A stretch of 17,519 nt of DNA from Promethearchaeota archaeon (GCA_048940445.1 JBHLON010000050.1:1-17519), one strand, 5' to 3'; shown: positions 1,138 through 17,268, counted from the stretch's first letter. Program-made: numbers and translations. The notes: generated by a model from the letters alone, not told the origin.

Positions 1138-1896
1138 TTATGAAGATATTATCTTTCTAACTCTTATTAAATCATTAATTGTTAAATTTAATTTGTTTTT
1201 ATTATTCTTAAATTGCATAAATCCTTTATGATTAATTCCATCACAATAATATTTCATTGAATCATCAAGGATTACTTCTTTTCCATAAATTTGGGAGTGT
1301 TGATTGTATTCTTGGATTAAAGTCTGAATTTTTTCCGGATTGAATTCAATAATAGGTAAAAAATATTGATTTGCATAGAAACATATTTTATGAGCAAAAT
1401 CATCGAGAGAAACTGATTTATGTAATATGTCTTTAATGGATATAACTGTTGATTTTAAATCTTTTGGCATTTGGCTGCTTGGGTTATTTAAATTTACACC
1501 CATTCCAATCAAAATATAATTTTTTTGAGGGCCTGTTATATAATCGATTAAAATTCCCGCAAGCTTTTTATTTTTATATAACAAGTCGTTAGGCCACTTA
1601 ATTTGAACTATTCGATTATATTCTTCTTTAATAACATGTGTTAATAATATTGCTGTAAAATAGTGGAACAAAGCTAATTGCGATTCATTCAACGATATTG
1701 AAGTTAAAATCCCCAAAGATGCCCAAAATCCACCTTCTGGAGAAAACCAATCATCTTCCTTTCTACCTCGACCCTTAGTTTGAGTTTTTGCTATTAATAG
1801 AATTGATGAATAAAAGTCGTTTTGAAGGTATTCAATTACCTTATTTTGGGTTGAATCTGTTCTATTAATATGGATAATCTTTATTTTAGAGAACAT
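1138..1896 (-). CDS. birA: Biotin--protein ligase (group I, no N-terminal HTH repressor domain)
   Basis: Motifs DSTQN, QTKGRGR..W.SPEGG, KWPND, KKLAGIL, IGMGVN. About 252 aa with no DNA-binding N-terminus. ATG at 1896; an alternative TTG lies at 1899. Confidence 0.93.
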   Translation of the reverse strand: MFSKIKIIHINRTDSTQNKVIEYLQNDFYSSILLIAKTQTKGRGRKEDDWFSPEGGFWASLGILTSISLNESQLALFHYFTAILLTHVIKEEYNRIVQIKWPNDLLYKNKKLAGILIDYITGPQKNYILIGMGVNLNNPSSQMPKDLKSTVISIKDILHKSVSLDDFAHKICFYANQYFLPIIEFNPEKIQTLIQEYNQHSQIYGKEVILDDSMKYYCDGINHKGFMQFKNNKNKLNLTINDLIRVRKIISS

Positions 1897-2080
1897 CAAA
1901 ATATTAAATTTTTAAAAGTCTTAAATAATTCATAAAGTACTTTTTATTTTAAATTTTTAGCTCCACATTAAAAATGAGAAAATAAAAGTGTTGAAAACTG
2001 AAACTACGCTATTTATACAATGAAAACGGAGTAAATATGACATTTCATCAAGAATCTATTTTCATACTTTTTATTTAAAA

Positions 2081-2098
2081 TGAATGAATGTACATTCA
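2081..2098. promoter_or_regulatory. Palindromic operator, TetR/FadR-like (TGAATGA-N4-TCATTCA type)
   Basis: TGAATGAATGTACATTCA, which contains the perfect 14-bp palindrome TGAATGTACATTCA (2085-2098). A second copy lies at 17487-17504. Confidence 0.65.
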
Positions 2099-2225
2099 GT
2101 AATGATGGATAACGATAGCTTGCTAAATTCTAAAGGAAAAACCTTGAATTTGGCGTTTAATAAAAATCAAACGAATATTTAATAATAGCTTTGATAAAAT
2201 AATACTTTTAATAATCTGTTTTCAA

Positions 2226-2275
2226 GTAAAAATTTTATAAATAAACTTTTGATCAAAATATTAATTCTTTATATG
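2226..2275 (+). promoter_or_regulatory. Candidate archaeal-type BRE/TATA promoter elements
   Basis: GTAAAAATTTTATAAA (2226-2241) is perfectly conserved in the second repeat copy. TTTATATG (2268-2275) lies about 23-30 bp upstream of the ATG at 2298. No Shine-Dalgarno sequence precedes the ATG. The AT-rich background limits certainty. Confidence 0.4.
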
Positions 2276-2297
2276 AATAATTGAACGTCTATTCAAA

Positions 2298-14407: not shown

Positions 14408-14412
14408 GATTT

Positions 14413-15207
14413 ATGAGAAAAGAATTAATAGAAATTAAAATTCGTTCCGAAATATTACGCGGAATTCTTTATTCGCCTGACATGGAGGAATCCCACAAGG
14501 GAGAAGAGATTTCATTCCCTCTTATAATAAGAATCAACGGTATGCCTGGAAAATCACCCGAAGAAGACGAAACGAGATTTGCTCACCATTTTGTTGACAA
14601 TAATTTTATGTACTTCACTTTTGATCATCAAGGAGTAAGGCAAAGCACGGGTATTTTCACCTATTATGACGCTCAAGCAAATATTGAAGGAGTGATAGAT
14701 CAATTAGTACACCATCCAAAAATAAACCCACTCAAAATTGGATTGTTTGGAGAGAGTTTTGGTGGAGCAATGGCTTTTTGTCATACTGTAAGAGACATAA
14801 GAATTCAATGTCTTGCAATATGTTCTCCACTGTTTAATACCGAGATTATTCCAAAAAACCCTTTATTTAAATTTTTCATCAAAGCCTTAACACGTAATAA
14901 GGAAATGCGTTTTCCAGATGGAGATCTTAAAAAGAAGTATGCAGAACAAACGAGGCAATACAATCCCGATAGAATTGCGGATAAGTTACTAAAACCTTTT
15001 TATCTAATAGCTGGAAATAAAGATGCACTGTTCCCCGAATATGGATTTTATCAACTTTTCAAGAAGGTTAAATCTGAAGATAAAAAAATTGATATAATTG
15101 ATGGGGCAAACCATAATTTTACTGAGAAAAAGCATTTTGATATTATGTGTCATAAACTTATTGATTTCTTTAATGAATATCTTTTCGAGATAAATTTAAC
15201 AAAATAA
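14413..15207 (+). CDS. Alpha/beta-hydrolase (Ser-Asp-His), putative trans-acting thioesterase/acyl-release enzyme
   Basis: FDHQGVRQSTG, nucleophile elbow GESFGG (Ser 14755-14757), AGNKD, GANHNF. The ATG at 14413 is 5 bp after the megasynthase stop and is preferred over the overlapping TTG at 14365. The thioesterase role is inferred from context. Confidence 0.88.
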   Translation: MRKELIEIKIRSEILRGILYSPDMEESHKGEEISFPLIIRINGMPGKSPEEDETRFAHHFVDNNFMYFTFDHQGVRQSTGIFTYYDAQANIEGVIDQLVHHPKINPLKIGLFGESFGGAMAFCHTVRDIRIQCLAICSPLFNTEIIPKNPLFKFFIKALTRNKEMRFPDGDLKKKYAEQTRQYNPDRIADKLLKPFYLIAGNKDALFPEYGFYQLFKKVKSEDKKIDIIDGANHNFTEKKHFDIMCHKLIDFFNEYLFEINLTK

Positions 15208-15210
15208 ACT

Positions 15211-15738
15211 ATGAAAGAAAAAATGAAGAAAAGAGTAAAATTCAGAGGTAGAACATATATAGTAATCCCTTTAGATGAAGGTAAAATAAAAGTTGATGAA
15301 CATATTTATACTCCAATAGTCATTCAAGAAACAGAAAATTTATTTCGGGTAAGTCTTGAAGATTGCCAGTTTAACTTAGAGTTTAGAAATGGAGTACTTT
15401 ATTTAGAAGGTGAGGAGATCGATATAGAGATTAAACCTTATTTGAAATCAACAGAAAAATACATAAAAAATCCTAAAGTTAAAGAAGCTATTGTAAAAGC
15501 TCCTATTCCTGGGAAGATATTACAAATTCAAGTAAAAGAACAAGAAATTGTGGAAAAGGAACAAGAAATACTAATATTAGAAGCAATGAAAATGAAAAAT
15601 CGGATACTATCTCCAATAAAAGGAATAATTACTCAAATTTTTGTAAATGTAGGTCAAAGTGTGGGTCAGGATCAGCATCTTGTAAAAATTGAAAATATAA
15701 CAACAGCAAAGAAGAAGGAGATATATCCCACTTTATAA
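15211..15738 (+). CDS. accB: Biotin carboxyl carrier protein with an N-terminal beta-rich extension (archaeal-type acyl-CoA carboxylase small subunit)
   Basis: VKAPIPGKI, LEAMKMKN (biotinyl-Lys 15589-15591), SPIKG, GQSVGQDQHL. Starts 3 bp after the hydrolase stop. Confidence 0.93.
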   Translation: MKEKMKKRVKFRGRTYIVIPLDEGKIKVDEHIYTPIVIQETENLFRVSLEDCQFNLEFRNGVLYLEGEEIDIEIKPYLKSTEKYIKNPKVKEAIVKAPIPGKILQIQVKEQEIVEKEQEILILEAMKMKNRILSPIKGIITQIFVNVGQSVGQDQHLVKIENITTAKKKEIYPTL

Positions 15739-15786
15739 CTAAGCTATATTTCCTATCTCTTCAATATTTTGAATATATAATCTCTT

Positions 15787-17268
15787 TTAACTTATTTGCT
15801 CAACTTTTGCAGCATCCCGCCATTTATTTGATCTCTTCTTGTGTTGTTGTTCAAGATGTGTCGAAAAATCAAACTCTTTGAATACTTGAAAAACTGCTGC
15901 TAATTTCTTTCTCTCTAAATCCTTCAGATTATGAGTAAAATTTGAATTATTTATGAAATCTGTTGAGAGTTCTCCTTTTTTAAACTCACAACTTTCAACA
16001 ATCACTTTATGCATATCTACATTCGTTTTAATTCCTGAGATAACTAATTCTTTAAGTGCTTGTTTAGAAAGGGTGATCGCCTTTTTGCGAGTTCGACCCC
16101 AAACGACTAATTTTCCTATTAATGAATCGAAATCAAGAGGAACAATGTAATTTGGGTAAATACAACCATCAAACCGTACTTTTGGACCTCCAGGGATGAT
16201 TAAATTTGTAATTTTTCCATGTTGAGGAAGGAATGAGTTATACGGGTCCTCCGCATTGATTCTAAATTCAATTGCGTGTCCTTGCACAGATATTTCTTTT
16301 TGTGTAAATTTTAAAGGCTTATTTGAAGCAACATTTATTTGTTCTTCCACTAAATCTACACCTGTAACCATTTCTGTCACAACATGTTCTACTTGAATTC
16401 GAGGATTTACCTCATTAAAATAAAACCTGCCATCTTTCCATAAGAATTCTGCGGTTCCCACATTTGAATAATTTAGTTCATGGGCTAATAAACGTGTTTT
16501 TTCTCCTAAATAAATGACCTGATCTCTTGTTAAGAAAGAAGGGGCTTCTTCAATTAACTTTTGATGTGAACGTTGGATAGTGCACTCCCTATCTCCCAAA
16601 TAAACGACGTTTCCAAAATTATCTCCAATAAATTGGATTTCTACATGGCGTGGTGCTGAAATCGATTTTTCAATAAAAACCTCTTTCCTTCCAAAAAACT
16701 GTAATCCCATTGATTGGCAACTATTTAAAGCATCACGCAACTTTTCTTTTGATTCAACAACTTCCATTCCCCGACCGCCTCCTCCAAATGCAGATTTAAT
16801 TATCACGGGGTATCCAATCTCCTCCGTAACCGATCTAGCTTCTTCAAAAGTATGAACAAAATCATTTGAACCTGGTATGACAGGTAATCCAACTTTTCCT
16901 GCAATTTTTTTTGCTTTAATTTTGTCTCCTAAAAAATCTATAATTTCTGGATTAGGACCAATAAAAATTTTGCCTATAGCGTTTACTTCTCTGGCAAAAG
17001 CCGCATTTTCACTTAAAAATCCATATCCTGGATGAACTGCATCAGCTTGAGACCTTTCAACTATTTTAATTAATTTTGGAATATTTAAGTAAGTTTCTTG
17101 AACTGTACCATCTCCTAAATTGTATGCTTCATCAGCCATTTTTACGTGCAAAGAGTCTTTATCTGCATCAGAAAATATGGCAATTGAACGCAAATTTTTC
17201 GATCGACATGCACGGATTATTCGAACTGAAATTTCTCCTCGATTAGCAATTATAACAGAATTAATCAT
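15787..17268 (-). CDS. accC: Biotin carboxylase subunit
   Basis: IANRGEI, HPGYGFLSEN, KSAFGGGGRGM, RECTIQRSHQKLIEEAPS, EVNPRIQVEH, EFRINAEDP. The ATG at 17268 matches the family N-terminus (MINSVIIANRGE). The TTG extension to 17337 runs through the duplicated non-coding repeat and is unlikely. Confidence 0.96.
   Translation of the reverse strand: MINSVIIANRGEISVRIIRACRSKNLRSIAIFSDADKDSLHVKMADEAYNLGDGTVQETYLNIPKLIKIVERSQADAVHPGYGFLSENAAFAREVNAIGKIFIGPNPEIIDFLGDKIKAKKIAGKVGLPVIPGSNDFVHTFEEARSVTEEIGYPVIIKSAFGGGGRGMEVVESKEKLRDALNSCQSMGLQFFGRKEVFIEKSISAPRHVEIQFIGDNFGNVVYLGDRECTIQRSHQKLIEEAPSFLTRDQVIYLGEKTRLLAHELNYSNVGTAEFLWKDGRFYFNEVNPRIQVEHVVTEMVTGVDLVEEQINVASNKPLKFTQKEISVQGHAIEFRINAEDPYNSFLPQHGKITNLIIPGGPKVRFDGCIYPNYIVPLDFDSLIGKLVVWGRTRKKAITLSKQALKELVISGIKTNVDMHKVIVESCEFKKGELSTDFINNSNFTHNLKDLERKKLAAVFQVFKEFDFSTHLEQQHKKRSNKWRDAAKVEQIS

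Follow-up and report, generated by a model that had tools for sequence, protein, structure and literature searches.

A candidate self-supplied type I fatty acid synthase cluster in Asgard archaea and its possible bearing on the archaeal–bacterial lipid divide

Introduction

Research on eukaryote origins has yet to explain how an archaeal host acquired fatty-acid ester membranes, and the Asgard archaea are the group closest to eukaryotes. The presence of plsY and plsC genes in Asgard genomes was known before (PMC6737245; PMC8813620; PMC13400652), and a fatty acid source depending on acyl carrier protein (ACP) was thought to be missing in archaea (bioRxiv 2024.07.05.601840). A DNA stretch of 17,519 nucleotides from a Promethearchaeota archaeon (GCA_048940445.1 JBHLON010000050.1:1-17519; the window in the following) raises the question whether some archaea possess such a source. 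Between positions 1,138 and 17,268 it carries genes for a megasynthase, a biotin-dependent carboxylase, a biotin ligase and a hydrolase, which the original prediction had read as a candidate ACP-dependent de novo pathway to fatty acids or polyketides with relevance for the lipid divide between archaea and bacteria. We consider it probable that the cluster is a self-priming and self-supplied iterative fatty acid synthase (FAS) module of bacterial Type R/S ancestry, most likely making saturated fatty acids. An ACP-dependent de novo fatty-acyl pathway is the best reading of the sequence, and its relevance for the lipid divide is supported by the genome-wide set of lipid genes. The prior characterization that the original prediction had named as an objection was not encountered, as neither a type I FAS of Asgard archaea nor this cluster was described in any paper found in the literature searched, with most subscription journals lying outside its coverage.

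Results

Genes and domains were called by Pfam and NCBIfam profile scans of the open reading frames of the window, seven in number. All predicted activities were found side by side, namely the biotin-protein ligase BirA, biotin carboxylase (BC), biotin carboxyl carrier protein (BCCP), carboxyltransferase (CT), acyltransferase (AT), two ketosynthases (KS), three ACPs, ketoreductase (KR), dehydratase (DH), enoyl reductase (ER), phosphopantetheinyl transferase (PPTase) and a hydrolase. The central gene (3878..14407, + strand) encodes an iterative type I megasynthase of 3,509 amino acids with the order ER0-ER-KS1-AT-KS2-ACPx3-KR-DH-PPTase, which unites KS, AT, ACP, KR, DH and ER with their catalytic residues on one chain, as is characteristic of a type I FAS or polyketide synthase (PKS). 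An exact look-up of this protein returned no record. Its catalytic residues are all invariant among the relatives, and its ratio of non-synonymous to synonymous substitution rates (dN/dS) of ~0.15 against two copies from the sister genus shows purifying selection.

All domains of the megasynthase are encoded on the + strand. The predicted ER is present; what had been missed is that residues 1–700 form two FabK-like TIM barrels (AlphaFold2 model of residues 1–720: pLDDT 91, pTM 0.92), the first of which lacks the catalytic His. This first barrel, ER0 (3890..4894), gives a profile match to the second one (probability 98.1%, E 7e-14), which is a FabK-type flavin mononucleotide (FMN) enoyl reductase with an invariant His486 (4895..5974; TIGR03151 FabK, E 7e-23). 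The best solved matches of the region in Foldseek were FabK enoyl-ACP reductases, with a TM score to the target of ~0.85, and ER0 might be the structural half of a pseudo-dimeric ER. The PfaA-like KS1 (6050..7459; C933, H1067, K1101, H1106) is followed by the AT (7556..8464; PF00698, TIGR00128) with S1326, H1432 and the AFH motif known from malonyl-selective ATs of PKSs. KS2 (8795..10234) is a divergent KS whose fold matches FabF and whose catalytic set C1859, H2007, K2042 and H2047 is invariant in 42 homologues, so that it is not a Cys-less chain-length factor (CLF). A structural model of KS1 with KS2 reached an ipSAE of 0.85 compared to 0.01 for the best control, with runs agreeing in at least 89% of the contacts and a partner pLDDT of at least 81; of the pairs used to set the ipSAE mark, 58 of 80 solved ones and 2 of 110 mismatched ones attained it. 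KS1 and KS2 are probably paired as an internal heterodimer, with the reservation that the score of the model may stem from its likeness to known KS dimer structures. The C-terminal part comprises the KR (11930..12664; PF08659) with invariant K2848, S2872, Y2885 and N2889, the PKS-type double-hotdog DH (12800..13672; PF21089, PF14765) with invariant H3012 and E3178, and the fused PPTase (13700..14404; PF01648 and TIGR00556 above cut-off) with Sfp-like motifs (D3397, E3399, K3435, E3436). The motifs of these three domains are invariant or nearly so among the relatives.

The three tandem ACPs (10415..11203) are present as predicted, but it had been overlooked that all three carry threonine at the pantetheine position (T2214, T2305, T2405; codons at 10517, 10790 and 11090), which aligns with the pantetheine serine of solved ACPs. 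Threonine is found in 346 of 356 ACP motifs among the 120 nearest proteins and in 318 of 331 motifs among 50%-cluster representatives, many of which are probably bacterial by their amino-acid make-up. Across the family all four threonine codons are used at this site, and in the synthase of Candidatus (Ca.) Heimdallarchaeum endolithica the ACPs read Ser-Thr-Ser, i.e., both residues occur within one protein. We infer from these sequences that the threonine is a functional pantetheine attachment site and represents a variant rather than a loss. A precedent for threonine-linked pantetheine was not found in the literature searched, which counts against this view and would fit with ACPs rendered non-functional by the exchange, in a system that is degenerate or uses another carrier. 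However, the conservation of threonine in bacteria and archaea with four different codons, the interchange of both residues inside single proteins, the retention in cis of a PPTase with intact motifs and the low dN/dS make non-functional ACPs highly improbable.

The genes next to the synthase would supply its substrate and release its product. On the + strand, the synthase gene is preceded by an acyl-CoA carboxylase CT of the PCC-beta/MmdA type (2298..3869; PF01039, E 1e-181) and followed by an alpha/beta hydrolase (14413..15207, likely ATG at 14413; PF12146), a candidate release thioesterase with a Ser-Asp-His triad that is invariant in 13 cluster copies, and by a BCCP (15211..15738; PF00364) with an invariant biotin-lysine motif. 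The gaps between these genes measure 8–11, 5 and 3 bp, in agreement with the predicted 3–11 bp. The hydrolase adjoins the synthase in Loki, in Heimdallarchaeaceae and in the family designated f18, and not in the Kariarchaeaceae loci seen. BC (15787..17268; likely start ATG at 17268, open frame running to 17337) and BirA (1138..1899; PF03099 and TIGR00121 above cut-off) are encoded on the - strand. Profile scans bore out that BirA lacks a helix-turn-helix domain and that BCCP has an N-terminal extension. BirA is the sole copy in the bin, and its gene is a neighbor of the cluster in loci of both Loki and Heimdall. The stretch separating BCCP from BC gave no hit in a sigma-70 style scan, a type of scan unsuited to archaea. 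A near-palindrome, TGAAYGT-NN-ATTCA, occurs at 2085–2098, 2282–2295 and 17491–17504, i.e., twice upstream of birA/CT and once upstream of BC; elsewhere in the 3.6-Mb bin there is one further match to this pattern, which was derived from the cluster sites themselves. It is not exactly conserved in the sister-genus loci and could be the operator of a TetR/FadR-type regulator.

Regarding the host, the window is the entire contig C1 of a bin of 3.64 Mb (G000; 93% complete, 2.8% contamination). A 16S search of this bin found no rRNA, and its taxonomy was taken from homologues and GTDB kinship instead. The locus is covered by contigs of four public runs, with only substitutions and no indels listed as differences; near-identical versions come from three sediment samples of one study, the best-matching of which may be the source of the contig, and a more divergent copy comes from a mangrove study. 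The runs listed with the locus include no RNA data set, which does not bear on expression. Full-length relatives of the megasynthase with 64–75% identity are in many cases labelled Promethearchaeota or Lokiarchaeum GC14, compared to identities of ~40–52% for Heimdallarchaeia, ~28–37% for Desulfobacterota and merely 28–41% for bacterial relatives overall. The synteny search suggested in the original prediction recovered the same gene set in Loki and Heimdallarchaeum chromosomes. In the 4.36-Mb single-contig Lokiarchaeota chromosome GCA_021498095.1, which we take to be the Ca. Harpocratesius repetitus of PMC8813620, the cluster adjoins genes for proteasome-alpha, the exosome and L37ae. It is also found in the closed chromosomes of Ca. 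Heimdallarchaeum endolithica and Ca. H. aukensis, and a further copy adjoins L31e/S19e genes on a 2.85-Mb contig. The cluster is archaeal and Asgard-borne, since it is embedded in closed Asgard chromosomes and its nearest homologues are Asgard proteins, and the suspected Lokiarchaeia-type Asgard origin is confirmed by both.

The contig is probably not native to its bin, as suggested by the absence of the synthase from all 41 congeners, by a duplicate thiolase and by the thiolase tree; in the sister Loki genus the synthase was found in 9 of 54 genomes. The window starts with a thiolase fragment (1–1122), which is of the SCP2 type as predicted but carries proline in place of the nucleophilic Cys and is no conserved part of the cluster; it was rejected as cluster member. 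This thiolase is single-copy in 84 family members; the bin has two, the second (C4:48560-49783) being the positional orthologue without cluster. A short C-terminal thiolase fragment lies in the same bin at C4:59231-59386. The C1 copy is 85–88% identical to copies of the sister Loki genus and groups with a carrier from it (89/87); the partner of the C4 copy in the tree is a congener (100/94). The composition of C1 is mildly atypical at most compared to the bin. The contig thus probably derives from this sister Loki genus, through mis-binning or through a recent transfer, and the archaeal assignment of the original prediction stands. That the contig is the sole carrier within its genus and brings along an extra thiolase gene, of which one copy is the norm, might point to bacterial contamination. 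Yet 64–75% identity to proteins on long Promethearchaeota contigs, the same cluster beside archaeal operons in closed Asgard chromosomes, the distance to all bacterial relatives and the closeness of the thiolase to the sister Loki genus leave this explanation a vanishingly small probability; a bacterial origin is already refuted and mis-binning from another Loki archaeon is likely. The NCBI label ‘Hodarchaeota’ on one relative (P0003) was rejected, as its genome (G233) is of the same family as the bin. Two other Loki bins hold short contigs with bacterial-type fabD/fabG/fabF-like genes (L015, G001:C179; L014, G029:C104), which are probably contamination.

To survey the distribution, KS2 was used as query against 400 Asgard genomes. 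Matches were found in 60, one of which has a stand-alone KS only. The synthase is present in 25 of 31 Heimdallarchaeaceae, 9 of 12 Kariarchaeaceae, 10 of 12 genomes of family f18, 2 of 3 of family f14, all three of the Harpocratesius genus, and, patchily, 9 of 134 of the Loki family f1, with 9 of 54 in the one Loki genus mentioned above. Among the Hodarchaeales searched (family named from S12 clusters) none of 22 carries it, and the other classes searched gave zero. Its near-universal presence in four Heimdallarchaeia families is as expected of a core gene. A separate contig search with a single KS2 query returned five loci only. Every Asgard locus examined has carboxylase genes alongside the synthase, as does one bacterial relative, and in the Loki order CT is found in 13 of 13 synthase carriers and in just two further genomes, one with CT near a contig end. 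Several Heimdallarchaeia also encode stand-alone KS2 genes of 470–550 amino acids away from the cluster (L072:9452-10942, L074:8566-10224, L077:9835-11472, L073:9666-11081). In Ca. H. aukensis (G055, L062-L063) the synthase is split into frames of 1,506 and 2,653 amino acids with tail, hydrolase and BCCP duplicated downstream, which is possibly an assembly error or a rearrangement.

In the broad tree the Asgard proteins, including two members assumed to be Asgard, form one clade among bacterial relatives (SH-like approximate likelihood ratio test 100 under LG+G and 99 under C20; root not inferred), with the Loki synthases sister to the Heimdallarchaeaceae copies. In our reading of these sequences, this would reflect one gain by Asgard archaea from bacteria and a later transfer to Loki from a Heimdallarchaeaceae-like source. 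In trees of 44–76 rows, Desulfomonilaceae fell within the archaeal group together with one protein from Myxococcota; this placement disappeared with broader bacterial sampling and was dismissed as long-branch artefact. A related all-in-one synthase on a Thermoplasmatota-labelled contig (L131:10001-20545; GCA_049472275.1) branches outside the Asgard clade and is possibly a second archaeal acquisition, the label resting on binning as recorded.

Next to the synthase, the lipid genes of the carriers are informative. The geranylgeranylglyceryl phosphate (GGGP) synthase, the first ether-forming enzyme, is encoded in 296 of 400 Asgard genomes, compared to 1 of 59 genomes of the synthase-rich Heimdall families plus f12 and none of three in the Harpocratesius genus; it is absent from two closed chromosomes. 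Since PlsX was not found in five genomes searched, Fak genes were sought, and the same Heimdall genomes carry DegV/FakB (36/36) and PlsY (36/36), and 33/36 have kinases resembling FakA that score below the cut-off for full length. The FakAB product is reported to be an acyl-phosphate and the substrate of PlsY (PMC9136124; PMC12594616). A fakA-fakB-plsY run occurs in family f18, and both closed Heimdallarchaeum genomes have a plsY-like gene next to the cluster. DegV/FakB genes are expanded to 9–23 copies in f18 (G121-G131) and Heimdallarchaeaceae (G051-G080), and f18 has 6–12 copies of PlsY-like genes, often adjacent to DegV/FakB. PlsC-family genes are found in Kariarchaeaceae and Loki carriers and not in Heimdallarchaeaceae or f18. 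In five genomes examined, a clear GpsA was restricted to the Harpocratesius-type one and a clear glycerol-1-phosphate dehydrogenase to G056 and G095. The Harpocratesius-type closed genome G032 combines a tandem PlsC-family pair with this clear GpsA (L009:7637-9691, L169:6427-7491; pair coordinates in L166) and gave no match for GGGP synthase, PlsY or a digeranylgeranylglyceryl phosphate synthase (DGGGPS)-like gene. Of all single genomes it is thus the strongest candidate for lipids of a fully bacterial type.

Discussion

On paper, the gene content would provide a complete route from the synthase to an ester-linked glycerolipid in the synthase-rich Heimdallarchaeia families. BirA would biotinylate BCCP, and BC together with CT would convert acetyl-CoA and bicarbonate to malonyl-CoA, the enzyme class being clear and the substrate presumed. 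The fused PPTase might transfer pantetheine to the ACP threonines, the AT would load malonyl, KS1 and KS2 would condense, probably as internal heterodimer, and KR, DH and the FabK-type ER would fully reduce each cycle, yielding mainly saturated straight-chain acyl-ACP, from which the neighboring serine hydrolase might free the fatty acid. That full reduction is needed is suggested by an ER-less Kariarchaeaceae synthase with a FabI-like enoyl-ACP reductase encoded directly downstream, and a polyunsaturated fatty acid (PUFA) as product is unlikely, as a FabA-type dehydratase/isomerase is lacking. In Heimdallarchaeia the acid would enter glycerolipids via FakA/FakB and PlsY, with or without PlsC, replacing the missing GGGP synthase, whereas Loki carriers of the type seen in the window, which keep the ether pathway and have PlsY/PlsC-family genes but no FakB, might gain lipids with ester links, or hybrids, as an optional addition.

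What the synthase makes is the point at which other readings have to be weighed. It might produce a specialized long-chain lipid as a minor component, such as a hydroxy fatty acid, a diol or an alkyl chain of a glycolipid or protein anchor, comparable to Hgl and Ars. This would fit with pfa-like secondary-lipid synthases being the nearest families (PfaA model TIGR02813, E 1e-268; PMC3098273), with two active KS domains that could reach very long chains, with the patchy occurrence in Loki family f1 and with the presumption that most bacterial carriers own a FAS II. However, no glycosyltransferase, terminal reductase or type III PKS is conserved beside the cluster in ~15 loci, and the synthase is near-universal in four Heimdall families in which GGGP synthase was lost and FakAB/PlsY are present, so that we regard a specialized lipid as rather unlikely. 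A secondary-metabolite PKS with a partially reduced product, or a methyl-branched one from methylmalonyl-CoA, appears still less plausible and, in our judgement, quite improbable. The best solved relatives of KS1 are modular PKSs, and a CT of the PCC-beta/MmdA type could carboxylate propionyl-CoA, but the AFH motif of the AT is of the malonyl type in all copies, the reducing set is complete with FabI standing in where the ER was lost, and the surroundings of the cluster show no conserved genes for tailoring, transport, export or resistance. Saturated fatty acids remain the favored product, with the caveat that for no Type R/S synthase a product, activity or expression was reported in the literature examined.

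More tentative, and in our estimation somewhat short of an even chance, is the further proposal that Harpocratesius and several families of Heimdallarchaeia (Heimdallarchaeaceae, Kariarchaeaceae plus two others) swapped the first ether step for synthase-made fatty acids, attached via FakAB-PlsY or PlsC-family enzymes, and thus have bulk ester or ester/ether hybrid membranes. Several observations weigh against it and against the main reading as well. HMG-CoA reductase and CarS are retained in Heimdallarchaeia, and DGGGPS-like genes are found in three Heimdall genomes, although not in the Harpocratesius-type one; together with the Fak and PlsY genes, this gene set would also agree with ester or ester/ether hybrid lipids. 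The family of MK-D1 mostly lacks GGGP synthase and lacks the FAS-like synthase, too, yet ether lipids were reported for MK-D1 from co-culture data (PMC7015854), so that a replacement enzyme for GGGP synthase may exist; the lipid method used could have missed esters (PMC13400652). FakAB-PlsY can equally scavenge outside fatty acids and occurs in 3 of 7 Hodarchaeales, which carry no synthase. In the Loki genus nearest to the contig all nine carriers keep GGGP synthase, and they are without FakB. Finally, related genomes are not independent samples, and what is seen in Heimdall may go back to one event. On the side of scavenging, fakA-like/plsY-like clusters without synthase were seen in the Hodarchaeales G097, G112 and G115 and in G119 and G120 of family f17, apparently as one open frame in f17; for GGGP synthase, these five genomes gave matches that are weak or miss the threshold (E at best 1e-13 to 1e-19), and fatty-acid scavenging is possible in them.

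Compared to known systems, the cluster is a variant of the uncharacterized bacterial Type R/S pfa-like family and not a new enzyme class. Type R secondary lipid synthases have the order KS-MAT-CLF-ACP(3-6)-KR with a PPTase downstream and sometimes an ACC gene nearby, are uncharacterized, and were listed by Shulse and Allen (2011) for Koribacter, Solibacter, Elusimicrobium and Roseiflexus (PMC3098273). The core order and the downstream position of the PPTase are shared, but here the PPTase is fused at the C-terminus of a chain that also includes ER0-ER and DH, the ‘CLF’ corresponds to a KS2 that keeps Cys-His-Lys-His, and the full set of carboxylase, BirA and hydrolase as well as the archaeal host are found on this side only. 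In the trees the Asgard clade is nested among bacterial KS-AT-KS2 synthases, which probably belong to the Type R/S pfa-like family; none of the aligned sequences was identified by name as a Type R protein of Koribacter, Roseiflexus or Elusimicrobium. A Type S synthase was suggested as core FAS of Desulfobacterium autotrophicum (PMC3098273), and Type S-like synthases of Desulfobacterales (P0075, P0092) share ER0-ER, KS2 and threonine ACPs but have an extra third KS-like domain and no fused PPTase. The single-chain architecture is not specific to archaea, as the all-in-one synthases of Desulfomonilaceae (P0114, P0082, P0089) have the identical domain order and threonine ACPs; these are ~36% identical, form a separate branch, and in the Desulfomonile locus seen the neighbors include a TetR gene and, unlike here, no carboxylase. 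With the PUFA synthase PfaA-E the cluster shares a PfaA-like KS-AT, tandem ACPs, KR, a PKS-type DH, an FMN TIM-barrel ER and a dedicated PPTase. It differs by its single chain and by an ER that is FabK-like rather than PfaD-like; Pfam and NCBIfam scans found no FabA-type DH/isomerase, no PfaB AT and no Cys-less CLF, and the score against TIGR02813 (894.6 bits) stays below the curated cut-off of 1010.1.

Fungal and mycobacterial FAS I and animal FAS are likewise iterative type I synthases, and a TIM-barrel ER with FMN as well as a PPTase fused to the chain are known from fungal FAS, too. However, the order AT-ER-DH-MPT-ACP-KR-KS with a single KS, typical for fungal and Corynebacterium/Mycobacterium/Nocardia FAS I, is not matched by a chain with two KS, tandem ACPs, no malonyl/palmitoyl transferase (MPT)/AT pair and no integrated thioesterase, and animal FAS ranks 60th among the solved relatives. 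An ancestry of eukaryotic FAS does not look likely; the trees covered archaeal and bacterial proteins. De novo formation of fatty acids in archaea is shared with the ACP-independent complex of Sulfolobus, which differs by relying on thiolase/DUF35 and CoA (bioRxiv 10.1101/2024.07.05.601840).

Conclusion

The cluster would supply the ACP-dependent fatty acid source thought missing in archaea as one expressible unit. New here is the combination, in synthase-rich Heimdallarchaeia, of a lack of canonical GGGP synthase with FakB/DegV, PlsY and FakA-like proteins. A widespread carrier family that seemingly uses threonine for pantetheine, as well as two intact KS domains and a putative pseudo-dimeric ER in a single chain, would represent new enzymology. 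As enrichments of the carriers Heimdallarchaeum and Harpocratesius exist (PMC8813620), lipidomics and reconstitution offer a direct test. A parallel case is more likely than a direct precursor, as the Hodarchaeales searched are without the synthase and the latter does not look like an ancestor of eukaryotic FAS. If bulk ester or hybrid membranes were confirmed, living Asgard archaea would stand partway across the lipid divide.

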